DNA from: a virus
Lineage: Duplodnaviria > Heunggongvirae > Uroviricota > Caudoviricetes
Length of the DNA stretch: 17,603 bases
IMG/VR virus record: IMGVR_UViG_2711768068_000022
Reading direction: 5' to 3' (one strand)
Shown here piece after piece: positions 1,462-17,603 of the stretch. The notes under the pieces are model-generated. The model had not been told where the DNA came from, did no database searches, and saw only the letters and a program-made list of their open reading frames with translations. Every line of letters begins with the position of its first letter. Position 1 is the stretch's first letter. A program made the position numbers and the translations under genes.

Positions 1462-1978
1462 ATATGTCCTTTTATCACTATACCAGGTCAAGTCATTGAT
1501 TTGATTAAACAATTATCATTGAAAAAGTGCCAAAAATCGCAAATTGACTACACCATTAACTACACCGTTCGGTGCACTGTATGAAACAACGTGGAACAAA
1601 TAGACACAAGAAATATACAGGCGGGTAATCTTTCCAGGGGGAAGCGCACCAATTCATGAGGGGCGTTAATGTCGATATGGGGATCCCCATAACGGGGCTA
1701 CCGGATTTTTTTTCCGGTTAACATTTAATCAGGCTGGTGGGTTTTACATACCCTTGATCACCGTAATGATGATCCAGATGTGCACCTTTTCCACCAATGG
1801 CGGAAAAGCTCCAACCGTAACGATGATCGCTATGGTTGCCTCGATGGTCTGCGTGGTCATTATGACCATTCAGCCAGTGACCTTAATCAGAATTTTTCGC
1901 TAAAAAATGACGTTGGCCACGTCATCCTGATAGCACAAAATCACGTCGACTTTTAATGAACGGTTAAACCGTCTTTTT

Positions 1979-2013
1979 GTCACGGTGTGTCACTGGTTGT
2001 CACTCTCCGTCAC
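1979..2013 (+). repeat. Four GTCAC motifs phased exactly 10 bp apart (starts 1979, 1989, 1999, 2009); candidate recombinase/excisionase or regulator binding array
   Basis: Sequence ttGTCACggtgtGTCACtggttGTCACtctccGTCACgatt read directly; one motif per helical turn. Confidence 0.5.
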
Positions 2014-2127
2014 GATTGAGGTGGTGGTCATTCTGCCCGACCGCGCATTTTTGCGCTATCGGGAATATAAAACAGTTACCGCCGTCAGCTACCCAGCTCA
2101 GAATTGAGCCGCCTTTTAATCAACAAG

Positions 2128-2409
2128 TTACCGCCGTAACCGCTCCGGCTTCTTCCAGTGGTACGTGATTTTCTCCTTCTCCCGATACAGTTCAACGCGG
2201 CGATTGTAGGCCAGCATTTCCAGAACGCGGATCCGTATGTCGCGCATATCCGCATCATTAAGCTGGATACCATCACGGCGCATCACCTCAGCAACAACAC
2301 GCGCATAATTTTCGGCTGTCACGCTGTCCGGCTGCGTGGTCTGTTCGTCAGCCTGCTGGCTGATTCCAGAGACGTGGCGGATTAATCGCAGTATTTCGGC
2401 TTCTGTCAT
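2128..2409 (-). CDS. Hypothetical protein (93 aa), last gene of the packaging operon after TerL
   Basis: ORF with ATG start preceded by GAGG about 9 nt upstream; 14 nt after the TerL stop; no motif recognised. Confidence 0.5.
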   Translation of the reverse strand: MTEAEILRLIRHVSGISQQADEQTTQPDSVTAENYARVVAEVMRRDGIQLNDADMRDIRIRVLEMLAYNRRVELYREKEKITYHWKKPERLRR

Positions 2410-2422
2410 GCTGCTGACCTCA

Positions 2423-4084: not shown

Positions 4085-4424
4085 GCTCGTCCTCTTCTTC
4101 TGTTTCCGGTGGATTTTTACGGCGGCTTATCGGGTCAAAACCGAGCAAAGAGGCCATTTTTATCATCACTCTTTCAGCGTCGGATTTTGCGCTTAATGCG
4201 GGGTTTCTGCTCTCACCGCCCTGACTGTTAACAATGCTGAACCCGCGCGCCGCAAGGTCTGCAACGGCTTTCCGGTAAATGGAGTAGTTGACACAATACA
4301 GTTCCAGATTGCTCCAGTCGGCGGGGGTCAGGTCTCCCCGTTCCGCAAGCTGCCTAGATTTTTCCCGCCACTGCTTCACGGCGATATCATCCAGGTAGGC
4401 GGGGGCTTTCGGTGGTCTTGACAT
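4068..4424 (-). CDS. Terminase small subunit (P27-family-like)
   Basis: 118-aa ORF immediately upstream of and overlapping TerL; size and W..L/C.NY/NPA pattern recall P27-family TerS; no strong SD seen upstream. Confidence 0.7.
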   Translation of the reverse strand: MSRPPKAPAYLDDIAVKQWREKSRQLAERGDLTPADWSNLELYCVNYSIYRKAVADLAARGFSIVNSQGGESRNPALSAKSDAERVMIKMASLLGFDPISRRKNPPETEEEDELDRLE

Positions 4425-4714
4425 GCTTATTTTTTCGCCAGATTATTTTTCAAAAAATTCCCGTGCATAAAAATTTGAGGAGGCGTTCGGTGCCCGGCGG
4501 GGTCGGGTTTGTCCTGAAAACGCCCCCCCACCCCGTCATACAGCCTCATCAGCGATTGCGGAAACATTCCATAACCTCGCGGTCACGGTCGGTTAATCGC
4601 TTCGCTGTGATGCGTTCTGCGCGTCCTGACGCTTTATCTTTATGCCCTGTTTCCTGTGTCTTCCATGCGTCACGCTGCCTTATAAGTCCACGGATAAGGC
4701 GGTTTTGTTCCCGC

Positions 4715-5155
4715 TCATTCATCAGCGTCATACATCCAGTTATTGCGGTTAGCGGCCCGTTCTTCCTCTTCACGAAATCCACCTGCGGCACGCTTGCTTT
4801 TTGTTGCCGGATCAAGCCATTTCGTTTTCTGGTTATGACACGCCTGGCACAATGGTTGATGGTTCCATTCGGGCCAGAAGAGAACATCATCACCGCCATT
4901 AATCGGGATAATGTGATCCACCACCACGGCGGGCGTATATATCCCCTTCTCAAGGCATCGCACGCATAACGGGTTTTTACTCAGATACATGGCGCGGTAT
5001 TTGTCCCACTGTCTGGAATATCCACGCGCGCGGCGGTGTCCTCGTCTGGCATCCTCTGCACGCCATGCCGCCCGCCTGTGCTCCTCACACTTGCCGGATT
5101 TAACGCGCCTGTTACAGCCTGGTTCTGTGCATCGTCTTAATGGTTGCCACGGCAT
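4715..5155 (-). CDS. HNH endonuclease (packaging-associated)
   Basis: 146-aa ORF with Cys pairs and VDHIIP...NHQPLCQACHNQK HNH motif; sits immediately upstream of terS as in HK97-like cos phages; GGGGG SD; start overlaps the upstream gene stop by 1 nt. Confidence 0.85.
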   Translation of the reverse strand: MPWQPLRRCTEPGCNRRVKSGKCEEHRRAAWRAEDARRGHRRARGYSRQWDKYRAMYLSKNPLCVRCLEKGIYTPAVVVDHIIPINGGDDVLFWPEWNHQPLCQACHNQKTKWLDPATKSKRAAGGFREEEERAANRNNWMYDADE

Positions 5156-5451
5156 CAGTACACCCCCACATCACGGTAAGCCGTCCAGAGTGCGCCAATC
5201 GTCATGGGTACGCGTGTTTTTGCGTTATCCGCGACAATCTGGCGATTCTCATACAGGTGAGCGATAAACATCATGCAGCCAATCTTTATGGCTGGCGTGA
5301 ACTCCAGCCCGTCATCAAAGCGCCTGCCTATGTGTATCTGGCACGCCTCAAGCGATGCGGCAATGTATCCGCTGATTAACTGGTCTTCCTCGTCTCCATC
5401 GATACGGCAATGGAGTTTCACTTCTTCCAGGGTGATAAGTTCTTCTGTCAT
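5155..5451 (-). CDS. Head-tail connector protein (gp6-like)
   Basis: 98-aa ORF; N-terminal LITLEEVKLHCRID.DEEDQLI pattern typical of gp6-like connector proteins; ATGA start/stop overlap with the upstream gene. Confidence 0.7.
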   Translation of the reverse strand: MTEELITLEEVKLHCRIDGDEEDQLISGYIAASLEACQIHIGRRFDDGLEFTPAIKIGCMMFIAHLYENRQIVADNAKTRVPMTIGALWTAYRDVGVY

Positions 5452-5786
5452 TTTTCCGCGCCCTCACGACAAAGAATTTCAAGGCGTGTCCTGGCGACAT
5501 CCGGCAACGGCTGCCCGATGATATTCAGTACACGCCCCGCCAGCGGCCCCGTACTGACCTTTATCCGGCTGGTGGCGTTGATGTCCTTCCGGTACCGTAT
5601 CCAGATCCTTACGGTACCAATCGCCAGCTCTACGCCCGATGAAATGGCCTCCTTGCTGCTGATCATGTTCACGCTTGCCCAGAGTGTGTGACCGTCCTCC
5701 CACGTTTCGAGTATTTCGCCCGTCATGGCTCTGGTCTGTTTCAGGGTCTGAATCGTTATCCTGTCACGCAGTCGCCCTATGTTCAT
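5448..5786 (-). CDS. Head closure / head-tail adaptor protein (HK97 gp7-like)
   Basis: ORF in the track runs to 5828; I place the start at the internal ATG 5784-5786 (MNIGRLRDRITIQ...), which has a GAGGGAG SD and forms an ATGA overlap with the portal stop. Pattern RITIQ...W...VWA...IRYR recalls head closure proteins. Confidence 0.65.
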   Translation of the reverse strand: MNIGRLRDRITIQTLKQTRAMTGEILETWEDGHTLWASVNMISSKEAISSGVELAIGTVRIWIRYRKDINATSRIKVSTGPLAGRVLNIIGQPLPDVARTRLEILCREGAEK

Positions 5787-6994
5787 TCCGGTTTTTCTCC
5801 CTCGCTGATTTTTACTTCCTGTTTCCATGCCTGACTGAACTCATCACCACCATCACGCGGTGACAGTCCTTCACGTTCGCGGGCTTCGTTCGGGCACATA
5901 ACGCCGGATTTGATGCCGCGCTCATAGGTGGCAAAGCGTTCGCCAGGTGTGGCCCGTAACAGGTCCGCGCTGTCAAACTCCACCTGATACCGGATACCAG
6001 GTACAGGCGAGGCCACCAGCAGGGCGTTTTTTATCTGCTGCTCAAAGTTCGCCAGCCACGGGCGCATCGTCATGGTGAGAAATGCGCGGCTTGCCTCGCT
6101 GAAATTGCTGTAGGTGCTGTTGCTGTATTCCTGCAAAAAAATCGGCGAGACGTTGAACATTCGGGCGATGTCTTCAATGGTAAAGCGACGGGAGGCCAGC
6201 CATTCAGCATCCTGATTACTCATGCCCAGCTGCTGATAGCTCATCCCCCCTTCAAGGATGGGCGTTTTTCCGGCGTTTCTGGCCCCTTTGTAGCGTTCCA
6301 GTGCGGCTAATGCCTGTTTGCCCTTCACGCCGTCCAGCCATTCGCCTGACGTGATAACCCCTGCCGCCATCATGCCATCACGCATCACGCTCGCGCCGTG
6401 GCGTTGTTGGGCCAGCCCAAGCCCCAGCGATTCGCGGCAGATGGTTACAGGTGAGCGCCCCATAAAGCCGTCATCCGTGGAGTAACGAAGGTGAAGTACT
6501 TCCCACGGTAAATAGTTGTGGGTGTTTCCGGTGTAGGCGTCAGTGATGCAATAGCGCCAGTTGTGTTCGCCTGTCTGCTCCACGTTCACCGACTGCGGCG
6601 GGTAAGGATGTAAAGCCGCCGGAAAACCATCACGCCCCCACTGAATAACCGCATAAGCATTACCGTTTAACAGGCAGTGGCGGATCATCATTCGCTTAAA
6701 CTGGTAGGGGGTTTGCCATGCGTTCGGGCGCTCGTTGAGGATGTGATCGACCGGATGAGAATCAAGCCACTCGCGGGCCTCCTTCCCCTTCTCATTGCGT
6801 ACCAGGTACAGGTAGCATGGCATAGTAGCCACCGCCTCAGAGATGACCGTAACGGCGTTCATGACGGCAGGCAGTGATTCCGCTGTCCCCGATGATACGT
6901 ACTCACCCGCCCCCGTGTTCGATGTGCCAGCCAGCGCCATAAATTCATCAAGCGTCATGCTGCGCTGCTCTTTTTTTCTTCTGAAAGGCCACAT
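5783..6994 (-). CDS. Portal protein (HK97 family)
   Basis: 403-aa ORF, size and position between protease and adaptors; GGGGGTG SD; ATG start. Confidence 0.88.
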   Translation of the reverse strand: MWPFRRKKEQRSMTLDEFMALAGTSNTGAGEYVSSGTAESLPAVMNAVTVISEAVATMPCYLYLVRNEKGKEAREWLDSHPVDHILNERPNAWQTPYQFKRMMIRHCLLNGNAYAVIQWGRDGFPAALHPYPPQSVNVEQTGEHNWRYCITDAYTGNTHNYLPWEVLHLRYSTDDGFMGRSPVTICRESLGLGLAQQRHGASVMRDGMMAAGVITSGEWLDGVKGKQALAALERYKGARNAGKTPILEGGMSYQQLGMSNQDAEWLASRRFTIEDIARMFNVSPIFLQEYSNSTYSNFSEASRAFLTMTMRPWLANFEQQIKNALLVASPVPGIRYQVEFDSADLLRATPGERFATYERGIKSGVMCPNEAREREGLSPRDGGDEFSQAWKQEVKISEGEKPE

Positions 6995-6995
6995 A

Positions 6996-7568
6996 TCACA
7001 CCCCCGCTAAATCCACCCACCAGCGGCGATTATCCGCACGCGGCATTTTTTCGGGGTGCTGCTCATACAGGGAACGGCGGGCCAGCTCCACGCCGGAATC
7101 GGGGTAAGCCGGTACCGATGTAACGGTAATTTCGTACAGTTCCGCCACCAGCACGGTGCGCACGCATGGATCTGTTGTGGTATCCCATACATCCTTACGG
7201 GAGCGAAAGCCAAAGCTCATGCCGGATATATCACCACGTTTAACCAGTTCGATAACGTCGCGCCCTGTACTGGTATCCGGTGGGGTCAGTTCAAAGCGTA
7301 ACCCTGTTTCATCCTCTTCCAGTTTCAGCGTGCCGGAACGGGTGCGCCCCAGTAACATACTGTGGTCATGCTCATACAGGCCGCGAACGTCATTACCCGC
7401 CGCAAGCCATTCAGTAAACGCCCCCCGCTGGAATTTTTCGTAAAACTCACCCCATAACAGTTCTGAAAGCTTATCCCAGCGAACAACGTAGCCTGTAAGC
7501 GTGTTGCTGCCGCTGGTGGTGATTTCCGATGACCGGATTTCCATACTCTTCATAATTTTTTCACCCAT
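6996..7568 (-). CDS. Prohead maturation protease (HK97 family)
   Basis: 190-aa ORF between major capsid and portal genes; GMSFGF...VTSVPAYP region resembles HK97-type prohead protease; alternative ATG starts at 7553 and 7544. Confidence 0.82.
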   Translation of the reverse strand: MGEKIMKSMEIRSSEITTSGSNTLTGYVVRWDKLSELLWGEFYEKFQRGAFTEWLAAGNDVRGLYEHDHSMLLGRTRSGTLKLEEDETGLRFELTPPDTSTGRDVIELVKRGDISGMSFGFRSRKDVWDTTTDPCVRTVLVAELYEITVTSVPAYPDSGVELARRSLYEQHPEKMPRADNRRWWVDLAGV

Positions 7569-7577
7569 AAAACACTA

Positions 7578-7597
7578 AAGGGGCTTTTAAGCCCCTT
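7578..7597 (-). terminator. Stem-loop between major capsid and protease genes (possible partial terminator/attenuator)
   Basis: Palindrome AAGGGGC-TTTTAA-GCCCCTT in the 39-bp capsid-protease gap, followed on the minus strand by a U-rich stretch. Confidence 0.4.
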
Positions 7598-7607
7598 CTG
7601 TATGCTG

Positions 7608-8765
7608 TTAATCGTCGTCCTGTGGCAGTTCCAGAATCTTGATCGCGTTCGAATCCACCACGCCACCGCCTAAATATTTCTGCGTGAAAATTTTGATGAA
7701 GCCCGGCTCTGTGAGGTTGTCCGGTCTGGTGCGAACACCTGTTTCGTGATCAACAATGTAGTAACCGCGTTTGAAGTCACCCAGGGCAATAACGTTATCA
7801 GGCATAAACTCCAGATATTCGACCGGAAGGCCCAGCAACGTATCAGGATCACCCGCCTGTAAACGGTCACGCCAGATGTAATCACCGTTCGCGTTCTTCA
7901 CCTTCTGGAGTTTTGCCGCCGTCGTGGAGTTAACCACCCAGACCGCGTTTTTGCGGTATTTTTTACGTAATGCAAATTTCAGGTCGATCAGCGGGTCCGC
8001 AGATGTCCACGCCAGAGATTCGGAAGGTTTAATTACCTGCAACGTACCAAAATCACGCTCTTTGTCGTTCTTCTCTGCACGGGGTACGGATAAAAAACCT
8101 TTTGCTTTTTTGTCACCGTCGCCCACAACCAGATCGCTTTCTTCGGTTTCCGTGAAGGTGTCGCCAATCTCACCCGTCAGCCATGAAAGGATGTCCACAT
8201 CGGAAAAATCCACGATTTCCTGTGTGGTGCGCGGGTACGCATAGACCGGATACAGCTTAATGCTCACCTCGTTAATCTGCGGGGTGCTGGTCTGTTCGCG
8301 TGCCTTACCCTCTTCACCGTGGTTAACGGTCGCACCGCCAGCGGAAACAAGCTGCTTAAACTCGTTGCTGCTGATTTTTTTCACGGTACAGATGCGGCGC
8401 ATGGTGGACTCATCCGCCAGCATTCGCATGATTTCGGTGTTCAGTTCGGGGATAACGGTATAACCACCATCAGCGGGAACGCCTGTACTTAATGCGCGGG
8501 TTTCACCTGTCAGAATGTAGCTGCGTAGTTCTGCGGGGTCAGTGGTCTGGCTGCTTTTACCTGGCTTGCTGCGCTCTTCGTCTGCAATGGCTTCAAGGCG
8601 GGAAATGTCTTTATCGAGGGATTCAGCTTTAGCGCGTAATTCGTCAAATTTTGCGCCCTCAGCATCGTTAAGACTGCGGTTTTCTTTTTCCGCGTTCTCC
8701 AGCATGTCGCGCATCTGATTTTTAATGGCGGTTTTCTGCTGGCGTAATTCGATTATTCTCGGCAT
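7608..8765 (-). CDS. Major capsid protein (HK97 fold) with N-terminal scaffold-like delta domain
   Basis: 385-aa ORF; charged coiled-coil-like N-terminus (about 100 aa) followed by a capsid-like body; first gene of the head operon; ATG start. Confidence 0.88.
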   Translation of the reverse strand: MPRIIELRQQKTAIKNQMRDMLENAEKENRSLNDAEGAKFDELRAKAESLDKDISRLEAIADEERSKPGKSSQTTDPAELRSYILTGETRALSTGVPADGGYTVIPELNTEIMRMLADESTMRRICTVKKISSNEFKQLVSAGGATVNHGEEGKAREQTSTPQINEVSIKLYPVYAYPRTTQEIVDFSDVDILSWLTGEIGDTFTETEESDLVVGDGDKKAKGFLSVPRAEKNDKERDFGTLQVIKPSESLAWTSADPLIDLKFALRKKYRKNAVWVVNSTTAAKLQKVKNANGDYIWRDRLQAGDPDTLLGLPVEYLEFMPDNVIALGDFKRGYYIVDHETGVRTRPDNLTEPGFIKIFTQKYLGGGVVDSNAIKILELPQDDD

Positions 8766-9010
8766 AAAAAAAGTCCTGGGGTTAAGTAAGGAACTCCAGG
8801 ACGCGGCAAAAACTCAACCGTTTTTCATAAGGGAATCAGCAATCGCACCGATCGTTTTCCCGCCTGGTAATGAATATTGGCGAGCACATTAACAGGCGGG
8901 AAAGTGGCCCCAGCGTCCTGGCACCACGGGCGAGAATAATCATGATTCAGTTCGGGTAAAATATGCCGATCCGCTCAGTGAACAACGTGGAACAACCACG
9001 AACAAATAAT

Positions 9011-9046
9011 TTACAAAAAATAACAAAAAGCCGGATTGCTCCGGCT
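9011..9046 (-). terminator. Rho-independent terminator (minus strand), copy 1
   Basis: Hairpin AGCCGGA-ttgc-TCCGGCT (9029-9046) followed on the minus strand by UUUUUGUUAUUUUUUG; lies directly downstream of the 9057-9281 gene. Confidence 0.7.
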
Positions 9047-9056
9047 GTATGGGTGC

Positions 9057-9281
9057 TCAGTCCCTGATCCCTTTCAGAAATTCTATCAATGCATCTGTCT
9101 GTTCAGGATTTACCGCCAGCATTTCACCGGATAGCGCGCAACGAACAAAACCATGATGATCCTTTTCAATCAGCGCCCCCGTTTCCAGGAATGCGCGGTA
9201 ATCAGTGATGTTCATCGTCTCCATGTTGTCAGCATGGTATTTATCACGCTGTTTTAATATCTCATCAAATTTCGTCGGCAT
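9057..9281 (-). CDS. Hypothetical protein (74 aa), insulated single-gene cassette
   Basis: Start placed at the internal ATG 9279-9281 with AGAGGAA SD (the track ORF extends to 9359 but would leave no room after the upstream terminator); flanked by two identical terminator hairpins. Confidence 0.55.
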   Translation of the reverse strand: MPTKFDEILKQRDKYHADNMETMNITDYRAFLETGALIEKDHHGFVRCALSGEMLAVNPEQTDALIEFLKGIRD

Positions 9282-9375
9282 TGTTTTTTCCTCTGTTGTG
9301 TCTGTTTGTTTCAGATAGTAACTATGCCGGACCGTGACGAAAAGCCAGTAGTGCGCCATACCATTTCAAATGACG

Positions 9376-9400
9376 CAAAAAAAGCCGGATTGCTCCGGCT
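9376..9400 (-). terminator. Rho-independent terminator (minus strand), copy 2
   Basis: Same hairpin AGCCGGA-ttgc-TCCGGCT (9383-9400) followed on the minus strand by U7; directly downstream of the PerC-like gene stop (9423). Confidence 0.7.
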
Positions 9401-9422
9401 GCGTGGTGTGGTTCTGATATTC

Positions 9423-9671
9423 CTACTCAGCTAATTTGCTCAGCCCCATGTCTGCATAAGTGCGATTTACTGCATTTCTCAGGTCTGCGTAGTTCTCCGT
9501 TGGCGGCTCCGGTGGCCTCTGTGCCTTCCTGGAACATTCCAGCCGTCGCATCGTAACCTGATGCCGTTCCTTGTCTGTCTCCACCAGTTGCATGACTTCA
9601 CCCCATCGCGCCGACGCCCTCCGGTAAAAGCCTTTTGCCTCGAGTTCCTCCGCTATGCGGTCATGTACCAT
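9423..9671 (-). CDS. PerC-family-like transcriptional regulator (82 aa)
   Basis: Start placed at the internal ATG 9669-9671 with GAGGGGG SD, which avoids overlap with the SSB gene; motif AEELEAKGFYRRASARWGEVM resembles the conserved PerC core as recalled. Confidence 0.5.
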   Translation of the reverse strand: MVHDRIAEELEAKGFYRRASARWGEVMQLVETDKERHQVTMRRLECSRKAQRPPEPPTENYADLRNAVNRTYADMGLSKLAE

Positions 9672-9681
9672 CGTCACCCCC

Positions 9682-10092
9682 TCAGAACGGAATACCGTCA
9701 CCGTAAGGGTCATCGCCTCCCGCTGGTGGCTGATTACCCTGTGTGCCTGTGGTTTTGCGTCTGTTCCCGCCTGGACGTGCCGCGCGGGCACTGATTACGC
9801 TGTCTGCAATAACCTGATACCCCTGCCGTGTTTCCCCGTTCTGTCCGGTCCACTGGCTGATCTGCATGTTACCCGCCACGGTCAGGAGTTCACCTTTGCG
9901 GTGCCTTGCCAGTGCTTCGGCCTGTCTGCCAAATGCCAGGACGGATAACCACATCGTCACCGTTCCGTCATCTGCCTGGCTGCACGGAAGGGGGACCGCC
10001 ATACTCGCCATCGTCATTTGTGTGCCCTTGCTGGTGGTCTTTAACTGCGGGTCAGCCACCAGCCGCCCGTAAGCTGCAATTTGTGCTGTCAT
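9682..10092 (-). CDS. Single-stranded DNA-binding protein (SSB-like)
   Basis: 136-aa ORF; OB-fold-like pattern (GRLVADPQL...W..V..FG..AE...KG..L...G.....W) with Gly/Pro-rich tail ending DGIPF, as in the SSB acidic tail; GAGGTGG SD. Confidence 0.7.
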   Translation of the reverse strand: MTAQIAAYGRLVADPQLKTTSKGTQMTMASMAVPLPCSQADDGTVTMWLSVLAFGRQAEALARHRKGELLTVAGNMQISQWTGQNGETRQGYQVIADSVISARAARPGGNRRKTTGTQGNQPPAGGDDPYGDGIPF

Positions 10093-10101
10093 ATTGCCAC
10101 C

Positions 10102-10416
10102 TCAGTGAAGCGATCCGGCGTTGTTCTTTTTCATCTTTTTCATCTCTTCCATCATTTTTTCAGTGAGCATTACGCACTGAAAACCCATTTTTTTGATGTC
10201 TACGGGTTTCATGCCTTTGTCAGTGGATATCACAGGCAGAATATCCTGATACACATCGCGGTCAGGGTAACTAAGCACACAAAGCGCCCATGATGCCACG
10301 GGTGAGGATCCTTCGTCTGTTTCAACCCACCAGCCTGGTGTAGCTGCGCTTATTTGCAGAATCGTGATCCGTCCGTTGTGCTTGTAAAATTTTTCACCAA
10401 ATTTTGGTTCGCTCAT
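10102..10416 (-). CDS. Hypothetical protein (104 aa)
   Basis: ORF with GAGAGGTGG SD and ATGA overlap with the upstream gene; no motif recognised. Confidence 0.55.
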   Translation of the reverse strand: MSEPKFGEKFYKHNGRITILQISAATPGWWVETDEGSSPVASWALCVLSYPDRDVYQDILPVISTDKGMKPVDIKKMGFQCVMLTEKMMEEMKKMKKNNAGSLH

Positions 10417-10664
10417 GATTCCACCTCTCCGGTTTTAACGTTGATGGTTGTTACCTGTTCCGCTTCGGCAATCTCCCGTTCTGTCAGCGTGGCAAAGTTT
10501 GCCGCCGCTGTGGTCATGAATGCGCTTATCAGTTCGGGATGTGCTTTCGCGTATCCTTCCCCCGCGTGGCGGTCTATCGTTCTGATTGCCACCTTTAAGG
10601 CGTGCTCTGTCATGTCTAACGCTTTATATTTTGGCTCTGTTCTGTCTCTGTGTTTTTGAGTCAT
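10413..10664 (-). CDS. Hypothetical protein (83 aa)
   Basis: Start placed at the internal ATG 10662-10664 with GAGGTGG SD; the longer track ORF (to 10796) would translate through the iteron array. Confidence 0.5.
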   Translation of the reverse strand: MTQKHRDRTEPKYKALDMTEHALKVAIRTIDRHAGEGYAKAHPELISAFMTTAAANFATLTEREIAEAEQVTTINVKTGEVES

Positions 10665-10665
10665 T

Positions 10666-10875
10666 TGCCCACCTCTACCCACTTTTTTCGCCCACTTTTT
10701 ACGTTTTCCCACTTCGTCCAACGTGGGAAATTTGGGATTTATATCATCTTGTTTCATAGGTATTTTTTTAGTGCCCACTTTTTGGGATATATGCACGTGG
10801 GAAAGTGGGTAATTTTGTTAAAATTCCGTTAAATCGCCCACCTTTCCCACTTTTAATGCCCACTTTTTACAGTGG
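10666..10875. repeat. Iteron array with central AT-rich segment: putative replication origin
   Basis: About 8 direct copies of CCCAC(T/C)TTT plus inverted copies (ACGTGGGAAA, GTGGGAAAGTGGG) around an AT-rich stretch (about 10735-10770); lies at and just past the 3' end of the replication ATPase gene. Confidence 0.7.
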
Positions 10876-12264
10876 TCCTACATCATCACCGTCAATGTAG
10901 ATCACGTCGTCTTTTTCCAGTTTGGCTAACCATCGTTTAAGGTGTTTTGTGTCATACCCCAGCTTTTTCATATCGTCACGTAACAGCGGGATCGTGCACT
11001 TGTCGCCGTGCTGTGTGCGTGAACGTATGCATCCCCATAGCGCGGTATGGTTTTCCGTCTTGTTGCCTGCCTCCTCGATGCGCTCCAGTTCAACGGGAGG
11101 GCGCGGCTTATCCACCACCACCAGCGACGTGATTAACTCCCCGTCAGCGTCGGTAAAAAGCTCCACCACGCGTAAGTCATATGCGGCTTCTTTGAGTTCC
11201 TCCGCGTCCTTCATTTTGGTGCATGAGATAACCAGCGCTTCGCTTCCTGCGTCCTCCCTGCGTATCCGGTATTCAGCATCCAGCGAAGCACGAAATGCAC
11301 TAGAACCGCGCGCGCCTTTCGTCTCATCCTTGCCGGAATGGTGAACCACCAGCACCGTGGCCCCTGTGCGTCGTTTCAGTTCGTCACAACCACGGATAAA
11401 CGCCCCCATATCACGGGAATCATTTTCATCATTACCACCAAAGCAACGCGCCAGCGTATCCAGAATAATCATGCGAACAGGTTTACCCGTTTCCCTCTCC
11501 ACCTGACGGGCAGCGATAACCATTTCATCAACATCAAGCGGGACCGCCGGAAAGATGGGACGGTTTACCAGATACAGATTTTTCACCTGCTCACCGTGCA
11601 CAACCTCCCAGGCTTTTACACGACGCGGAACGCCGATACCGCCTTCACCAACCACATAGAGAACAGCGCCATGCGCCACCCTGCGGCCTCCCCACTGACG
11701 GCCCGTGGAAACGTGACACGCCCACGAACCCGCAAGGAATGATTTATAGGAACCGCTTGCCCCGTATATGCTGCATAGCGACGATGCCGGAATAATCCCC
11801 TTTACCACGTAATCTAATTGCGTGTCGTATCCGGCAGATCCAACGCTCATCGGTAGCGTGGTTTTTCGCTGGTGGTGTTCTTCCCCTGGCTTTTTCCCCC
11901 GCTCCCGTTCCAGATATTCGCGCCAGTTCTCCCGCTTCTGGCTGTGTATCCCTTCGGGGTAATAATTCGCATCAGTTACGCCCGCCGCCGCCAGCTTGTG
12001 CGCAATGGCATTAATATTTGATGGCCTGATGTGGCCTGCCTTGTACAGCCGGACACAATAGCGCCCCTCGTCGATGATTCTCAGGTCTGCCAGTTCATCC
12101 AGTTGATCATCAGCCAGCACAATGGGAGGCACATTATCGCCAGCCAGTCGCCCGTCCTGTTCCTGCCACTGTTTCGCATGTGCCCACGCATCACTACCCG
12201 CAAAAATGATGACTTCGGTCATCTTGTCGTAAGGCTGTTTTTTTAAGTTCGGTGCGCTTTTCAT
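10867..12264 (-). CDS. Replication protein, RecA-fold ATPase (RepA/DnaB-like helicase/primase-associated)
   Basis: 465-aa ORF; deviant Walker A (YGASGSYKS), Walker B-like MIILDT, and VLVVHHSGKD motif typical of RepA/AAA_25-type replication ATPases; ATGA overlap with the upstream ORF. Confidence 0.78.
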   Translation of the reverse strand: MKSAPNLKKQPYDKMTEVIIFAGSDAWAHAKQWQEQDGRLAGDNVPPIVLADDQLDELADLRIIDEGRYCVRLYKAGHIRPSNINAIAHKLAAAGVTDANYYPEGIHSQKRENWREYLERERGKKPGEEHHQRKTTLPMSVGSAGYDTQLDYVVKGIIPASSLCSIYGASGSYKSFLAGSWACHVSTGRQWGGRRVAHGAVLYVVGEGGIGVPRRVKAWEVVHGEQVKNLYLVNRPIFPAVPLDVDEMVIAARQVERETGKPVRMIILDTLARCFGGNDENDSRDMGAFIRGCDELKRRTGATVLVVHHSGKDETKGARGSSAFRASLDAEYRIRREDAGSEALVISCTKMKDAEELKEAAYDLRVVELFTDADGELITSLVVVDKPRPPVELERIEEAGNKTENHTALWGCIRSRTQHGDKCTIPLLRDDMKKLGYDTKHLKRWLAKLEKDDVIYIDGDDVGPL

Positions 12265-12560
12265 TTCTTGCCCCTGAATCCGTTAATCATGGTTTTCAGC
12301 TTCTGGATGTTTGCCCGTGCCCTGGCGTTGCTGGTGGGCACGTTATGCGGCGCGGTCTGTACCAGAGAAAAATCACGCCGGAACTGATAAACAGGCATCA
12401 CGCAATCATATTCGTAACCTTCACGGCGGTAAGTTACGCACCGTCCCGCCACGCCCTTAATCATTACCGTGCCGCCGTACTGGTCGCGGTAAATATCACC
12501 GCGCATAAATTTAGGGTGAGTGTTGCCACTGGCAGTTAAGCCAGAATATTTAAGTTTCAT
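12261..12560 (-). CDS. Hypothetical protein (99 aa)
   Basis: ORF with GGAGAA SD; translationally coupled to the replication ATPase gene. Confidence 0.55.
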   Translation of the reverse strand: MKLKYSGLTASGNTHPKFMRGDIYRDQYGGTVMIKGVAGRCVTYRREGYEYDCVMPVYQFRRDFSLVQTAPHNVPTSNARARANIQKLKTMINGFRGKK

Positions 12561-12565
12561 TATTT

Positions 12566-12799
12566 TTATTCTCCGGTGTGCTGTTCGTTATATCTGTCGT
12601 GCAATGTCTCTATTTCCTGCAACTCATTTATTACAGGCTCAAGAAGCGTTATTAATGATGTAATAATCCGCGTTTTTTTTGCATTACGTTCATTATCGCC
12701 AAAGGATTCAAGGCACATCCGCAATATTTCGTACATACCTTCAGCGTAAGCAAGGGCACTAAATGCGCGGTCTATTGTTTCAAGATAAATATCACGCAT
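12566..12799 (-). CDS. Hypothetical protein (77 aa)
   Basis: ORF with GAGGA SD; predicted helical; no motif recognised. Confidence 0.5.
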   Translation of the reverse strand: MRDIYLETIDRAFSALAYAEGMYEILRMCLESFGDNERNAKKTRIITSLITLLEPVINELQEIETLHDRYNEQHTGE

Positions 12800-13241
12800 G
12801 GCTTACATCCTCAGGAAATTTTCTTCTGTAACGCGCCTCTGCCACATATTCCGCATAATCGGCGGCGATATTCAGTACATCAAGTCCCGTTGATTTATAT
12901 TCTTTCGTGGAAAGTAAGAAAAAAGCCGCTCTAATAAGTTCTGGCATTGACGAAAGCGCATCAGCCGCATCATCAGGAACGCCGGAAAATTCTTGTTTCA
13001 GGGAATTAAAACGATCATCACGCATAACCCCCCCCCCATTTTCACAATCAGCAACAAGAATATTTTTAGCGTCATTCAGCGACCGCGTTGCGATGTATCG
13101 GATACATTCCAGGGCGAACGTTGTCCGGTCTTTCTGTTCTTCTCCCTGCGCAAGCTCTGCCGTGCATTCAATATCAATAAGCGCGTGCATCAGCGTAGTG
13201 AGCGCGGCGGCGGCTGCGTCCGGTGTGGTTTTATTGCACAT
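12792..13241 (-). CDS. Hypothetical protein (149 aa) containing a G10 homopolymer in-frame
   Basis: Start placed at ATG 13239-13241 with AGGAGG SD (the track gives a TTG start at 13271); the start overlaps the stop of the upstream small paralog. Confidence 0.55.
   Translation of the reverse strand: MCNKTTPDAAAAALTTLMHALIDIECTAELAQGEEQKDRTTFALECIRYIATRSLNDAKNILVADCENGGGVMRDDRFNSLKQEFSGVPDDAADALSSMPELIRAAFFLLSTKEYKSTGLDVLNIAADYAEYVAEARYRRKFPEDVSHA
13028..13037. repeat. Homopolymeric C10/G10 tract inside a coding sequence
   Basis: Ten consecutive C on the plus strand (G10 on the coding strand, encoding NGGGV). Confidence 0.9.
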
Positions 13242-13404
13242 GGCACACCTCCTGACGAATACGGGCGACAAAAATCAGATGTGCGTGCGGCAGCTGTGCA
13301 CGTGCTTCGCGCTCAGTGGCAGCGGTAACGGTGAATATTGCAATACTGTCTGTCAGGCACTGCATAAAGCGCCAGACAAAATAAGGGCGTGTGAATACAG
13401 CCAT
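13231..13404 (-). CDS. Small paralog A (57 aa) of a tandem ORF family; may alternatively be the C-terminus of a longer ORF starting at 13698
   Basis: ATG 13402-13404 with GGAG SD; product shares the motif F(V/L)WRF...TEREAR...ARIRQ with paralog B; the same frame stays open upstream to ATG 13696-13698. Confidence 0.4.
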   Translation of the reverse strand: MAVFTRPYFVWRFMQCLTDSIAIFTVTAATEREARAQLPHAHLIFVARIRQEVCHVQ

Positions 13405-13690
13405 GTGAAAGGCTCCCAGATGAATTTTAAGGAGTCTCGCTACTACGCTGTCAAACATGGTGGCGAGACGTAACAGGGTTGACAGACTGGTCATCTGGAA
13501 ACCAGCGAGCACAAAGGCTCCCCCGTTACGCCCCGCCATAATGCGGGTATGGGTAGGTTTACGGACACAAAAAAACCGCTTATCGGATGTGGGCGGCTGT
13601 CCGCCAGATGTATTCAGGCTGTCAAACCCGGTCGCCATGTGGGCGACGGGGGAAGCATACAGCCCCGTGATAATTTTTTGCAAGCGGTTT

Positions 13691-14248
13691 TTACGCATGA
13701 TGTGACCCCTGACGAATACGGGCGGCGAATACAGCAACACAACCGGACGGGCAACGGCTACGCGCTTCGCGTTCCGTCCAGGCGGTTACGTGGATGATTT
13801 GATGTTCTGACGCGCCAAAGATGATAAAGCGCCAGAGAAAGGCGGTTTGAGAATGTACAAGGGTAGGGATAGTAGCCATGTTGGCAGCCTCCTCAGTGTG
13901 GTTAAGATAACCGCCACCGGAAACGCCAATTTCGCTGGTGGCGGACTGTACAGGGTTGGCGTAACCGGACACTGAAGAAACCGGCGCGGATTGCTCCGCC
14001 CCCGTACAGCCCACCATTGATAAGGTGTGACTATGCGGCACAAAAAAACACGCGGGGCGCGTGTTATGCGCTTCAGTTTTGCCCAGGACGCCAATCCCGG
14101 CACCCGTTTTATGAGGTGCGCGGGAATCATAGCTATTTTCGACACTGGCGATCAACTGGTTTTTTTCTCCGATATTCAGTGCCAGAAAACGCCACACAAA
14201 GGCAGTTTGTGTGTGTACAAGGTGTGGTATATGATTTACAGCAACCAT
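13691..14248 (-). CDS. Hypothetical protein (185 aa) with internal duplication; its C-terminal 62 aa (13691-13879) has its own strong SD and may be translated separately as paralog B
   Basis: ATG 14246-14248 with AGGAG SD and an upstream 5'-UTR hairpin; N-terminus MVAVNHIPHLVHTQTAFVWRF and internal MATIPTLVHSQTAFLWRF (GAGGAG SD) are paralogous. Confidence 0.4.
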   Translation of the reverse strand: MVAVNHIPHLVHTQTAFVWRFLALNIGEKNQLIASVENSYDSRAPHKTGAGIGVLGKTEAHNTRPACFFVPHSHTLSMVGCTGAEQSAPVSSVSGYANPVQSATSEIGVSGGGYLNHTEEAANMATIPTLVHSQTAFLWRFIIFGASEHQIIHVTAWTEREARSRCPSGCVAVFAARIRQGSHHA

Positions 14249-14339
14249 AACGGCTCCTAGTTTACGTTGTTGGTTAGACGCCCTGCATGTGTTGCGAGCA
14301 CTGCGGGGTTTCGTCTTTTCTGTACCTTGCATTAACAAG

Positions 14340-14421
14340 GTGTAAGACACAATGTAAAATAACGGTGTCTTACACGTCAACCCTTCAAAATATTTTTTTT
14401 TCGTGTATATTGTCTTACACC
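14340..14421 (+). promoter_or_regulatory. Operator/promoter region of RHH module 1
   Basis: Perfect 11-bp inverted repeat GTGTAAGACAC (14340-14350) / GTGTCTTACAC (14365-14375), a third half-site TGTCTTACACC (14411-14421), and candidate -35 TTCAAA (14384-14389) / -10 TATATT (14406-14411). Confidence 0.5.
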
Positions 14422-14441
14422 AAAAACATGAGGGGTTAAAC

Positions 14442-14621
14442 ATGGCAACGGGTCCAAAGAATGCAAAATCACAATCTGTAACTGCACGTATTGCCCATGA
14501 AATTATTGAAGGCATGGAGAACGTGAAAGAAGAAGGTGAAAGCACGGGGCAGTTTATAAACGCAGCCATGCGCGGCGAAATCAAACGCCGCCAGCGCCGC
14601 AAGACCAAAGAATCAGAATAA
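14442..14621 (+). CDS. Arc/MetJ-like ribbon-helix-helix DNA-binding protein (59 aa), module 1
   Basis: ATG with GAGGGG SD 6 nt upstream; predicted strand-helix-helix pattern (SVTARIAHEIIEGMENVKEEGESTGQFINAAMRGEI), basic C-terminal tail. Confidence 0.6.
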   Translation: MATGPKNAKSQSVTARIAHEIIEGMENVKEEGESTGQFINAAMRGEIKRRQRRKTKESE

Positions 14622-14625
14622 TCAC

Positions 14626-14670
14626 CATCAGCGCCGTGGCGTGAGGTACTACGGCGCATTGCTTTACAGG
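14626..14670 (+). repeat. Conserved 45-bp intergenic element, copy 1 (hairpin GCGCCG-N15-CGGCGC followed by ATTGCTTTACAGG)
   Basis: Near-identical to 15311-15355 (2 differences) although the flanking coding sequences are diverged. Confidence 0.7.
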
Positions 14671-14678
14671 GCAGTACC

Positions 14679-14906
14679 ATGACCAACAACACACTATCAC
14701 CAATACAAGACACGCAGACGCAAGAAGATGAAATCATTCGGCAAAGGCAGTTAGAAACCTGTGCTCGCCTTGAAGCCGAACTGGCTAATCCTCTGAATAT
14801 CCAACTAATACCGATAGAAATGAAACCTGGACTATTCGCGTTGGAGGCATTTTTAGCAAGCTGCCCACGGCGGCTAAAGTCCCGTAAGAATCGCCCGCCA
14901 GGATGA
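14679..14906 (+). CDS. Hypothetical small protein (75 aa), module 1 second gene
   Basis: ATG 57 nt after the RHH1 stop; weak SD; begins MTN like its counterpart in module 2. Confidence 0.4.
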   Translation: MTNNTLSPIQDTQTQEDEIIRQRQLETCARLEAELANPLNIQLIPIEMKPGLFALEAFLASCPRRLKSRKNRPPG

Positions 14907-15025
14907 GTACACAAAACCGAACTATGAAACGGATTATTCCGTTTCCGGGGCGTTTGTGTGTGTATAAAGAGTAAGCTATGCTCTTTTATAGCCATAATCG
15001 TTACCTCAATTAATGGTTTGGTTAG

Positions 15026-15067
15026 ACGCCCCGTATGTGTTCCCATCACTGCGGGGCGTTGTTTTTT
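15026..15067 (+). terminator. Rho-independent terminator of RHH module 1
   Basis: 8-bp perfect stem ACGCCCCG/CGGGGCGT (15026-15033 / 15052-15059) followed by TTGTTTTTTG. Confidence 0.55.
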
Positions 15068-15083
15068 GTGCTAGTTGTGTGTA

Positions 15084-15099
15084 ATGTGTATATACACAT
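15084..15099 (+). promoter_or_regulatory. 16-bp perfect palindrome ATGTGTATATACACAT overlapping a candidate -10; putative operator of RHH module 2
   Basis: Read directly; sits about 30 bp upstream of the RHH2 start; a second dyad TTGAC-GT-GTCAA follows at 15122-15133. Confidence 0.45.
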
Positions 15100-15126
15100 A
15101 AACACATTATATGGAGTGTAATTGAC

Positions 15127-15306
15127 GTGTCAACACACAAAAATGAAAGGCGTGGTAATCCTCCTTTCCAGTTCCGTTTAGATCCTGACTTACGGGAAAA
15201 GATGGAAAAAGCACAACAACAAGACGGTGATGACTCTTTAGCAGCTTGGATAAAACGAATAATCCGAAAAGAATTACAGCAACGCGGTATTGAACCCAAA
15301 GAATAA
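15127..15306 (+). CDS. Arc-like ribbon-helix-helix DNA-binding protein (59 aa, GTG start), module 2
   Basis: Not in the ORF track (GTG start, under 60 aa); GGAG 10 nt upstream; PPFQFRLDPDLREKMEKAQQQDGDDSLAAWIKRIIRKEL aligns with the P22 Arc strand-helix-helix pattern as recalled. Confidence 0.5.
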   Translation: MSTHKNERRGNPPFQFRLDPDLREKMEKAQQQDGDDSLAAWIKRIIRKELQQRGIEPKE

Positions 15307-15310
15307 AAAA

Positions 15311-15355
15311 CATCAGCGCCGTGGCGTGAGGAACTCCGGCGCATTGCTTTACAGG
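15311..15355 (+). repeat. Conserved 45-bp intergenic element, copy 2
   Basis: Same position (57-nt intergenic gap) and sequence as copy 1. Confidence 0.7.
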
Positions 15356-15363
15356 TACACACA

Positions 15364-15567
15364 ATGACCAATAAAGAATCAACCAATACACCATCGCAAA
15401 AAACGAACAGAGAGCACGAAAATATGGCGCTCGAGCATGAATCAGAAAGATTCGCTCCATGCGCTTTTGTCCTTGATGAGTTTCTAAAAAAATATTCACG
15501 TTCTGAACGGATGAAAATGGCAGCACAATACGGCCCCAACAAGCAAGGTAATTGCCCACCAGCCTGA
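15364..15567 (+). CDS. Hypothetical small protein (67 aa), module 2 second gene
   Basis: ATG 57 nt after the RHH2 stop; weak SD. Confidence 0.4.
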   Translation: MTNKESTNTPSQKTNREHENMALEHESERFAPCAFVLDEFLKKYSRSERMKMAAQYGPNKQGNCPPA

Positions 15568-15641
15568 TAGCGGCTATCATTCCCGTGCTTATGTTTGGGA
15601 TCACATACACATAAGGCGCAGCAGGTTAATTGTTCAGAAAG

Positions 15642-15669
15642 GCGGCTCCATATCGGGGCCGCTTTTTTT
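15642..15669 (+). terminator. Rho-independent terminator of RHH module 2
   Basis: Stem GCGGCTCC/GGGGCCGC (one G-U pair), 5-nt loop, then T7. Confidence 0.65.
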
Positions 15670-15810
15670 ATGCCTGAAAAACCCCAATTTTGTTGTTTTT
15701 CAGTTTCACCAGGGCGAACGAATCCCCGCCCACGTTCGGGCGCATATTCAATCTTCATGGTTATATCTCTGTATTAGTGGATGTGTGGCGACTGTGTGCC
15801 GCCAGTCTTT

Positions 15811-15999
15811 TTAGTGAACTGCCTTGCAGCTATCCTTCCAGGCCAAAACCTCAGATAAAGACCAGCCAACAGAACGCCCACCAAGTTTACGACGTGATGG
15901 GAATTGTCCGGCCTTTTCCAGGCGGTAGCGGCATGAGCGGCTAAGGCCTGTTAGCTTTTCGCATTCTTTTTCACGTATAAACCGATCAGTGCTTAACAC
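15811..15999 (-). CDS. alpA: AlpA-family (phage Xis/MerR-like) transcriptional regulator/excisionase
   Basis: 62-aa ORF, GTG start with AGGGGG SD; motif KLTGLSRSCRYRLEKAGQFP...GGRSVGWSLSEVLAW matches the AlpA family; sits next to the integrase. Confidence 0.8.
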   Translation of the reverse strand: MLSTDRFIREKECEKLTGLSRSCRYRLEKAGQFPSRRKLGGRSVGWSLSEVLAWKDSCKAVH

Positions 16000-16050
16000 T
16001 ATTGCCCCCTTTCGTTTCTTAAAGAGTTATTTCGTGTTCTATTGCGTTGG

Positions 16051-16080
16051 GATGTGTCTGATTGTGTCAGGATGATTCAG
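16051..16080 (+). repeat. Three tandem 10-bp units GATGTGTCTG / ATTGTGTCAG / GATGATTCAG upstream of alpA
   Basis: Read directly; helical-turn phasing; same TGTGTC core as the arrays at 1979-2013 and 16281-16335. Confidence 0.5.
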
Positions 16081-16160
16081 AGTTGGCAAATGTTGGTGTC
16101 GCATGGTTTACAGAAAGAGGAATAATCAGAATAAAATCATTTAAATTCATGTTAATACAA

Positions 16161-16190
16161 AGGCATAAAATCTTGTTTTATGCCTTTTTT
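16161..16190. terminator. Palindromic hairpin terminator between int and alpA (possibly bidirectional)
   Basis: Perfect 10-bp stem AGGCATAAAA/TTTTATGCCT with a 5-nt loop; T5 on the plus side, U-rich on the minus side. Confidence 0.55.
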
Positions 16191-16280
16191 CGCACGCTTT
16201 AACGCGTAATTCACTAATGTATAAAAAACCAGCTGAGCATTAAAAATCAGTAACTTACAAATCTGTATTCTTTTTGGCCT

Positions 16281-16335
16281 CTTGTTCGTGATTGTGTCAC
16301 GTTGTTGCACATTGTTTCACGTTGTATCTGTGCAC
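16281..16335 (+). repeat. Tandem ~20-bp direct repeats (GTTGTTGCACATTGTKTCAC) just 3' of int
   Basis: 15-bp ATTGTGTCACGTTGT (16291-16305) and ATTGTTTCACGTTGT (16311-16325) differ at one position, with a partial third unit. Confidence 0.55.
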
Positions 16336-16373
16336 TTATCCAGTATGCGCATACTGAAAAAACACGAAAAAAA

Positions 16374-17603
16374 TTATTTTATTCTGGTTACTGGTAGCGT
16401 GGTTACGTTTTCATGTGTTCCCGCCAGTATCTCCAACCGCTCCACCCACATATCAAGCGCATTGCGTTTCGCATCAATATAGCGGGAATGGTTGTACACG
16501 CGTTGCATTCCTGGCATCTGGTGGCCTGTAAGCTGCTCCACGACGTGAGGATCAACGCCTAAATCGTTCAGCATGGTTGTAAAGGTGCGCCGGATGTCAT
16601 GCAATGACCATTGAGGGTGTTTTAGCCTCCTGTGCGCTAATCTGCCGTACTGCGATACGCTGGTTTCCTGTTTCACTTCCCCCAGCAATAAGCCCGTGTG
16701 CCTGTTCTGCTCCACCAGCTGCGTGACGAACGGCAGTATCGCTTCCGGTATGGGCCGGAATATGGCTACCTTCGTTTTGCTGTGCTCCTTCGGAACGGTC
16801 CAGAGCATTTCGGTAAAATCCCACTCGCCGATCTCCGATAACCTCAGTTCTACTGTTCGGCATCCGAAAACAATCAGGAGGCGGATTAGTGCGACGTAGT
16901 AAGGGGAAAATATTTTTTTGTCCAGTGCCTGCAATAATTCGCCAAGTTCTTTGTTACTTAAGACACGCTCGCTTATATCCGGTTTTTTCCCAACGTCCGC
17001 CACACTCATATCATCAAGAACGTTGCTGATTGCATAGCGCCGCTTCCTGCAGAACTTAAGCGCCTGCTTGCATGTCTGTAGCAGGAACCCGGCGGAAACA
17101 GGGGCTTTCTTTGCCACCCGATCAAAACAGGCCAGCCAGTGCCGTAGCTCGCATTTATCCAGCGGCATAGGGCCAATGTGCTGTATTACGTGATTATTTA
17201 GCCGCTTTTTCAGTGGGTCATAATCCACACGGTTTTCCTTTGCGTACGACTCAAGCCAGTAGGTGAGCGCATCGCCAACCGTTACCGGCTTTAACGCTTC
17301 CTGTACGGTGTAATTCATTTCATGACGTGGATTTTTCCCCTCTGCCAGCCATGCGCGACACTGGGCGGCTTTTTCCCTGGCTGATTTCAGGCTCAGATCA
17401 GGATAATTTCCCAGCTTAATGCGTTCCGGTGGTGCCCCCCTTCCCGTTCCGGCCCTGTAAGTGAAATACCAGGTTAAAAGGCCACTGGTTGAATGCCTGA
17501 CGCTCAGGTTTCCACCGTCATTAAGAAAGGCTGTTTTTTGGGCGGGTGTGCCGTTGATTTTCCTCAGCTGTGTATCGCTCAGTTTGTTAAGTGCTCTGCT
17601 CAT
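16374..17603 (-). CDS. int: Tyrosine site-specific integrase (P4-type)
   Basis: 409-aa ORF; C-terminal catalytic motifs (HDIRRT, LTGH, Y in RVYNHSRY); ATG start is the last three bases of the window, so the adjacent att site is outside it. Confidence 0.92.
   Translation of the reverse strand: MSRALNKLSDTQLRKINGTPAQKTAFLNDGGNLSVRHSTSGLLTWYFTYRAGTGRGAPPERIKLGNYPDLSLKSAREKAAQCRAWLAEGKNPRHEMNYTVQEALKPVTVGDALTYWLESYAKENRVDYDPLKKRLNNHVIQHIGPMPLDKCELRHWLACFDRVAKKAPVSAGFLLQTCKQALKFCRKRRYAISNVLDDMSVADVGKKPDISERVLSNKELGELLQALDKKIFSPYYVALIRLLIVFGCRTVELRLSEIGEWDFTEMLWTVPKEHSKTKVAIFRPIPEAILPFVTQLVEQNRHTGLLLGEVKQETSVSQYGRLAHRRLKHPQWSLHDIRRTFTTMLNDLGVDPHVVEQLTGHQMPGMQRVYNHSRYIDAKRNALDMWVERLEILAGTHENVTTLPVTRIK

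Follow-up and report, generated by a model that had tools for sequence, protein, structure and literature searches.

The window analyzed here, a stretch of 17,603 nucleotides, is a piece of Escherichia coli chromosome in which phoQ (positions 1-1461) is followed by a satellite with all of its genes on the minus strand. Listed from the integrase end, the features of the island are:

2128-17603, minus strand: capsid-forming PICI-type satellite adjoining phoQ (Pfam, PHROGs and the RefSeq annotation of a relative)
16374-17603, minus strand: integrase
between the integrase and DUF4222, minus strand: Ash/Icd-like ORFs, then small overlapping ORFs
12261-12560, minus strand: DUF4222
10867-12264, minus strand: RepA-type helicase
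9682-10092, minus strand: SSB
7608-8765, minus strand: major head protein
6996-7568, minus strand: protease
5783-6994, minus strand: portal, followed by connectors
4715-5155, minus strand: HNH
4068-4424, minus strand: TerS
2423-4084, minus strand: TerL

An integrase and replication module thus stand beside the island's own capsid, protease, portal, connector, HNH, TerS and TerL genes, and tail genes are absent, which is the gene content by which capsid-forming PICIs (cf-PICIs) are recognized. Both the gene set and its order, an integrase–regulator–replication module followed by the capsid-to-TerL genes, agree with the published description of cf-PICIs, of which EcCIEDL933 is the prototype (bioRxiv 10.1101/2022.09.08.507074). 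A RefSeq-annotated island in strain OkiPb01685 is 98.6% identical to the satellite in the window. The candidate for an AlpA-type activator beside the integrase is a 62-aa ORF (15811-15999), which occupies the position annotated in relatives as a helix-turn-helix transcriptional regulator and is without an NCBIfam match. The 452-aa ORF at 13691-15049 (minus strand) combines, in a single frame, an Ash domain (residues 307-400) with an Icd-like domain (residues 404-447), parts that appear as partial pseudogenes in the annotation of relatives; beside it, a 250-aa ORF (15006-15758, minus strand) has no match in Pfam, PHROGs, NCBIfam or PADLOC.

The early operon of the satellite contains a run of ten G residues within a small ORF. 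The first-pass annotation had placed this run at 13028-13037 on the coding strand of a 149-aa ORF, and the sequence and ORF coordinates confirm the placement. The features surrounding it are:

13231-13740, minus strand: preceding ORF, from a putative start, with an Icd-like domain in its last ~50 residues (NF033153, residues 121-163)
12792-13241, minus strand: 149-aa ORF, an in-frame fusion of two small genes (ATG 13241-13239, stop 12792-12794)
13038-13241, minus strand: main part of the upstream gene, residues 1-68; in G8 relatives a protein of its own, 73 aa, with the C terminus ...CENGGGYA
13028-13037, minus strand: G10 homopolymer, encoding Gly-Gly-Gly and the first base of a Val codon, with an internal ATG 2 nt downstream
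12792-13025, minus strand: downstream gene, 77 aa (MRDDRFNSL...), with its own ATG at 13025-13023; annotated separately in relatives
12792-12799, minus strand: stop/start overlap ATGCGTGA of 8 nt, read from the sequence, joining the fused ORF to the next small ORF
12566-12799, minus strand: next small ORF of the operon, 77 aa, phrog_2196 (unknown function), from the ORF call and PHROGs

The run reads as C10 on the plus strand at 13028-13037 and therefore as G10 on the minus, coding strand, where the codons across it (AAT GGG GGG GGG GTT ATG CGT) specify N-G-G-G-V-M-R. The preceding ORF (13231-13740) extends at its 3′ end 11 nt into the fused ORF. Apart from the tract, no G/C run in the whole window reaches 8. 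E. coli ORFs contain fewer long mononucleotide runs than expected, above all of G/C (PMC1378130). In dinucleotide shuffles of the window a run of this length arose in 10 of 200 replicates, a marginal result from a test that is inflated because shuffling preserves the CC dinucleotides of the tract itself. Chance is nevertheless irrelevant here, because a run of G7 or longer is kept at the orthologous position in 86 of 95 related loci. The remainder of these loci, 934 kb in all, contains 23 G/C runs of 7 or more and four of 9 or more.

The 95 loci were collected by a pattern scan of IMG/VR and a few complete genomes, using exact anchors of 12 and 14 nt beside the tract, a procedure that favors close relatives and makes the junction look more conserved than it is. 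A one-genome-per-species contig collection yielded a single locus, from Shigella flexneri, and added little to this census. The module that carries the tract is not limited to cf-PICIs; it also lies beside a P4-type primase in the Nissle/CFT073 lineage and in an O157:H7 island that encodes capsid, decoration protein and TerS. The latter, the phoQ island of O157:H7 strain 493/89, has the integration site and left-hand module of the window, and its right-hand module holds only a major capsid protein, a head decoration protein and TerS, without portal, protease or TerL. The shared left-hand module and differing right-hand module indicate that different satellite types share the tract-bearing regulatory module. 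We had considered the published EcCIEDL933 experiments as grounds for arguing that a fusion allele is functional; that argument was dropped, as the O157:H7 island with the G7 fusion is a different, smaller satellite.

The 149-aa ORF is a fusion allele of two small genes rather than a single ancestral gene, and several observations point to separate genes as the original arrangement. First, the two halves are annotated as separate genes in most relatives. Second, among the homologues those that have diverged most, at 38-65% identity, exist as free-standing proteins of 72-77 aa, each with its start or end exactly at the junction, and distant homologues of the downstream half start exactly at the internal Met. 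Third, two distant loci have an 8-nt overlap at a junction without a homopolymer; one of them (L097) reads AGGAGGTGGGGCATGCATAA, with an ordinary Shine-Dalgarno (SD) sequence ahead of the overlap, and the other (L098) is similar. Fourth, the overlap that joins the fused ORF to the next ORF at 12792-12799 has the sequence ATGCGTGA, as at the G8 junction. Fifth, of the nine interrupted tracts, six keep the two genes in separate frames. Finally, PHROGs holds one fused family and two split families for these proteins, and the ORF in the window matches both the fused family (phrog_2512) and the families of the separate halves (phrog_5146 and phrog_24341). G8, which is also the commonest allele, probably represents the ancestral frame.

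Both halves are under purifying selection, with dN/dS of ~0.24 for the upstream and ~0.39 for the downstream half. Neither half has a match beyond noise in Pfam, NCBIfam, PADLOC or PDB sequences, and their PHROGs matches are restricted to families of "unknown function." By BLASTP the halves have no similarity to each other, nor does either half to the next ORF, and so the tandem small ORFs do not appear as paralogues. A low-confidence AlphaFold2 model of the fusion (mean pLDDT 60.8, pTM 0.40) predicts two helical halves separated by a disordered stretch at residues 70-89, around the glycines. The upstream gene also carries other small in-frame repeat polymorphisms between strains (window ~13185-13215, minus strand; homologues P0164, P0165 and P0168), namely an Ala run of GCN repeats that varies from DAAAA to DAAAAA and a 9-nt repeat difference that distinguishes EEREE from EEREEREE.

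Tract length varies widely at this site, which reads GAAAAT-G(n)-TTATGCGTGATGAT in close relatives with n variable. Among the 95 loci, 23 have G7, 37 G8, 20 G9, four G10 and two G11, and nine are interrupted; a G13 allele is present in the protein database, and the closest whole-island relative of the window is G11. All three frames and at least six tract lengths therefore occur among close relatives, and the comparison across isolates that had been suggested earlier returns lengths from G7 to G13. Slippage, also proposed in the first-pass annotation, is borne out by loci that differ in little else. More than one tract length is found in six of ten groups of loci with identical 500-nt flanks. 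Among pairs whose 441-nt flanks are identical, 34% have tracts of unequal length, and in pairs with one or two flank substitutions the length difference is already at random expectation (0.76). Lengths were spread in much the same way in a systematic sample of ~900 matching complete E. coli genomes, where G10 appeared in one of ~44 informative rows. G10 also accounts for 14 of 134 records with near-identical flanks. Contigs with the N-terminal haplotype of the window number 330 for the G8 form and 70 for the G9 form, and 7-11 carry the exact fused G10 protein. As a free-standing protein, the exact 77-aa downstream product is called on 991 contigs.

The rarity of G10 (4 of 95 loci, 1 of ~44 rows, 14 of 134 records) raises the question of whether the window carries a true allele. 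If its tract were in truth G9 or G11, the 149-aa ORF would be absent from the organism. Two cases of assembly disagreement are consistent with such an error. The two complete assemblies of strain 97-3250 differ over 1.5 kb solely in G10 versus G9 at this tract, and in the EcN_Sk assembly of Nissle 1917 the tract itself (C8) and a T8 run 225 nt away each come out one base short (L103 positions 793 and 1017, relative to L004). Some 20 further Nissle assemblies are in mutual agreement, unlike EcN_Sk, and its shortfall is likely a homopolymer under-calling error that creates a spurious fused ORF and a "frameshifted" Icd-like pseudogene. The exact fused protein of the window, which requires G10, nevertheless recurs on 11 contigs from at least eight independent samples, including NCBI drafts and Logan assemblies of separate runs, and other G10 fusion proteins are found on 152, 212, 237 and 261 contigs. 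Because the exact protein recurs in independent assemblies, the G10 of the window is probably real, and the sequencing error that the first-pass annotation had offered as an alternative is improbable. The two same-strain discordances, in 97-3250 and Nissle, look at least partly technical, and since some apparent variation has this origin, isolated length differences should not be read as switching. The length differences between clones are real.

What each length does to the reading frames can be read from the junction. G8 and G11 close the upstream gene with ...GGGYA-TGA, a stop that shares bases with the downstream ATG in ATGCGTGA or ATGCTTGA. In RefSeq the G8 form is annotated as two genes with an 8-nt overlap, the upstream 3′ end being GGG GGG GGT TAT GCG TGA; the overlap at 12792-12799, between the fused ORF of the window and the next small ORF, is the identical 8-nt sequence. 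With G9 the upstream frame is extended by nine codons (...GGGLCVMIVLIP) to give an 80-aa product, and the PGAP annotation is either a "frameshifted" pseudogene or two overlapping ORFs. With G7, G10 or G13 the halves share one frame, and the called product is a fusion of 144-156 aa; in the window the overlap is lost and G10 reads through as a single ORF. The upstream gene keeps residues 1-72 at all lengths, with its tail alone altered. The downstream ATG is retained in every tract-length allele, and the downstream ORF is intact at similar rates across all three frames, so that the start codon and both gene bodies survive every length.

These outcomes bear on the earlier claim that a one-base change would truncate the protein after about 70 residues. 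That claim is correct for the upstream frame, which ends after 80 aa with G9 and ~74 aa with G11, but it does not hold for the remaining 77 residues, which have their own ATG and a predicted ribosome-binding site. The on/off contingency switch that had been proposed on this basis, in which slippage would truncate a 149-aa protein, is not supported, as the ORF is a fusion of two genes and no tract length removes either gene body or the downstream start.

A contingency function could still take another form. The satellite might be selected to keep a hypermutable G-run that switches lineages between separate and fused or tail-extended proteins, and switching would then change a property of the satellite, such as its response to, or interference with, the helper phage. 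The abundance of all three frames in natural isolates, the 34% of identical-flank pairs that differ in length and the randomization of length after one or two flank substitutions would fit such selection. The behavior of the tract within clones is divided. In the O26 and O111 STEC clones, G9 alleles are found side by side with G10 alleles, a point in favor of a switch. Against this, G8 is found in ~58 of 59 assemblies of the Nissle 1917/ATCC 25922/ST73 group, where the Nissle outlier bears the under-calling signature described above, and the sampled O157:H7 genomes have one common shorter length, verified as G7 in one genome; the tract of O55:H7 DEC5B is one base longer than the O157:H7 tracts. 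The consensus length, as judged from assemblies, is thus stable within these clones, and the fixation of the G7 and G8 alleles argues against a contingency switch. E. coli is proficient in mismatch repair, and slippage at G7-G10 is expected to be far below the rates of classical contingency loci.

The distribution of lengths and the composition of the run can be weighed in the same way. Over the 95 loci the lengths follow a smooth curve with a single peak; the fusion frames are not depleted and frame periodicity is absent, which speaks against a switch. Interrupted tracts had been named beforehand as an observation that would count against a switch, and they occur: six of the nine (GGGGGTGG, GGGGTGGG and GGGGGGGGTGG) keep the split frame and leave both genes whole. 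In favor of selection on the run, it is pure in 86 of the 95 loci and its bases are more conserved than neighboring synonymous sites, heterozygosity being 0-0.10 in the run and 0.29-0.36 at flanking third codon positions, a comparison that is biased by the anchored retrieval of the loci. The run is conserved beyond the needs of a 5-6-nt SD, which leaves room for selection on the run itself. Since neither gene is abolished at any length and the two halves match nothing in Pfam, NCBIfam, PADLOC or PDB, we regard a selected contingency function as unlikely. The tract is probably an ordinary mutational hotspot, and an adaptive phase switch is not supported.

Two further length-variable homopolymers in the same operon of related islands belong among the points in favor of a contingency function. 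The first is an A7/A8 run at the preceding junction, absent from the window and lying just upstream of the SD of a gene beginning MCNKTT (L003 ~1950-1960 and L004 ~1915-1925, minus strand). A7 fuses this gene to the preceding MSQEIT ORF, giving 145 aa, or 221 aa if the G-run fuses its two genes as well; A8 leaves two ORFs. The second, likewise absent from the window, is a run of G5-G9 in the next small ORF (MNEIPFDVL...EQGGD...), found in L031, L034, L046 (~6201-6208), L058, L064, L065 and L074, where two of the seven copies are out of frame through either variation or assembly error. Taken with the G-run, these tracts prompt the speculation that the early operon holds a set of homopolymer switches that the satellite exploits to change how small regulatory or interference proteins are linked, or their stoichiometry, through slippage on DNA, slippage of the ribosome, or both. 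We consider this reading unlikely.

The predicted pairing of the G-run with the 3′ end of 16S rRNA reaches -11.6 kcal/mol from G7 upward, compared with -13.0 kcal/mol for a consensus SD, and it ends 2 nt before the downstream ATG, which places the predicted SD within the 3′ end of the upstream gene. From the annotation, the starts of homologues and this pairing energy, we infer that the G-run serves as the Shine-Dalgarno sequence of the downstream gene and that the internal ATG (13025-13023) is used as its start.

An SD-like run of glycine codons could also act during decoding. If the ribosome, through re-pairing of tRNA-Gly, or RNA polymerase slipped on the run, any genotype would yield both fused and separate products, and the length of the DNA tract would merely tune their ratio. 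Re-pairing on GGG codons is perfect whichever the frame, the fusion sequences of the G7 and G10 alleles would result from slips of +1 in G8 or -1 in G9, and internal SD-like elements, which the run itself resembles, stimulate frameshifting in prfB and dnaX. Such recoding would naturally account for the tolerance of all three frames. A fixed out-of-frame arrangement is nonetheless absent, and all frames and many lengths are found among close relatives; the documented cases of transcriptional slippage in E. coli involve, as far as is known, A/T runs. We therefore hold recoding to be very improbable. A prfB-like +1 site, composed of the G-rich SD, UAU, a codon and UGA, was considered as a candidate and rejected, as the GCG before TGA cannot re-pair in the +1 frame, which counts against recoding.

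We favor the reading that the tract is a slippage-prone homopolymer at the boundary of two small, translationally coupled genes of PICI-type satellites, where it generates a fusion/fission polymorphism, and we assign this reading a probability of about 0.7. According to this model, the G-run would have a double role, encoding the glycine tail of the upstream gene and providing the Shine-Dalgarno sequence of the downstream gene, and replication slippage would alter its length by one base per event. With n = 8 or 11 the upstream TGA would overlap the downstream ATG in the coupled arrangement; with n = 9 or 12 the upstream gene would gain nine codons; and with n = 7, 10 or 13 a single protein would be made, its halves joined by a Gly-Gly(-Gly)-Val linker. 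The window has the rare n = 10 state, in which ribosomes would pass from the upstream into the downstream gene to produce the 149-aa fusion, and independent initiation at the internal ATG may also provide the free 77-aa protein. Because both gene bodies and the downstream start survive every length, and as the allele frequencies suggest, length changes would be nearly neutral, and near-neutrality would in turn explain how a long G-run can survive here with all three frames widespread among natural isolates.

This arrangement can be compared with several known systems. Like the contingency loci of Neisseria, Haemophilus, Campylobacter and Bordetella, of which the poly-G tract of gonococcal pgtA (PMC2193922) and the tracts of B. 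pertussis (PMC1891110) are examples, the site has a coding G/C run of 7-13 that varies between isolates by slipped-strand mispairing and samples three frames. Unlike those loci, a change of frame leaves the product on, the downstream part having its own start and predicted ribosome-binding site, and the satellite alleles are clonally stable in a host, E. coli, that is proficient in mismatch repair. The majority G8 allele, with its ATGCGTGA overlap and G-rich predicted SD, resembles the coupled overlapping genes of phages and satellites (ATGA or ATGnnTGA, with the SD inside the upstream gene), a layout that recurs at the next junction of the window and at the junctions of distant relatives. It differs from the usual coupled pair in that the predicted SD is a pure, slip-prone homopolymer and in that the allele of the window lacks the overlap. 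Fusion/fission polymorphisms at gene boundaries, where adjacent genes are fused in some genomes and separate in others, are a further parallel; unlike rare and ancient fusions or fissions, the present one depends on a homopolymer, is recurrent and reversible, and segregates within one species. Searching the literature for this tract, or for switching by homopolymers in satellites of E. coli, brought up nothing relevant.

The coupled-gene reading has practical consequences for how these satellites are annotated. PGAP renders G9 as a "frameshifted" pseudogene, G7 and G10 as one protein of 144-154 aa and G8 as two genes, so that thousands of E. coli genomes, and PHROGs, present a single locus in three different forms. 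Treating the site as two coupled genes with a slippery SD provides one consistent annotation. Length differences at the site that lack read support are poor evidence of phase variation and poor SNP-like markers. Should the switch reading prove true, the tract would be a rare case of SSR-mediated switching in a mobile element of a mismatch-repair-proficient enterobacterium, and these uncharacterized small proteins would be marked out as functionally important for interactions between satellites and their helpers.
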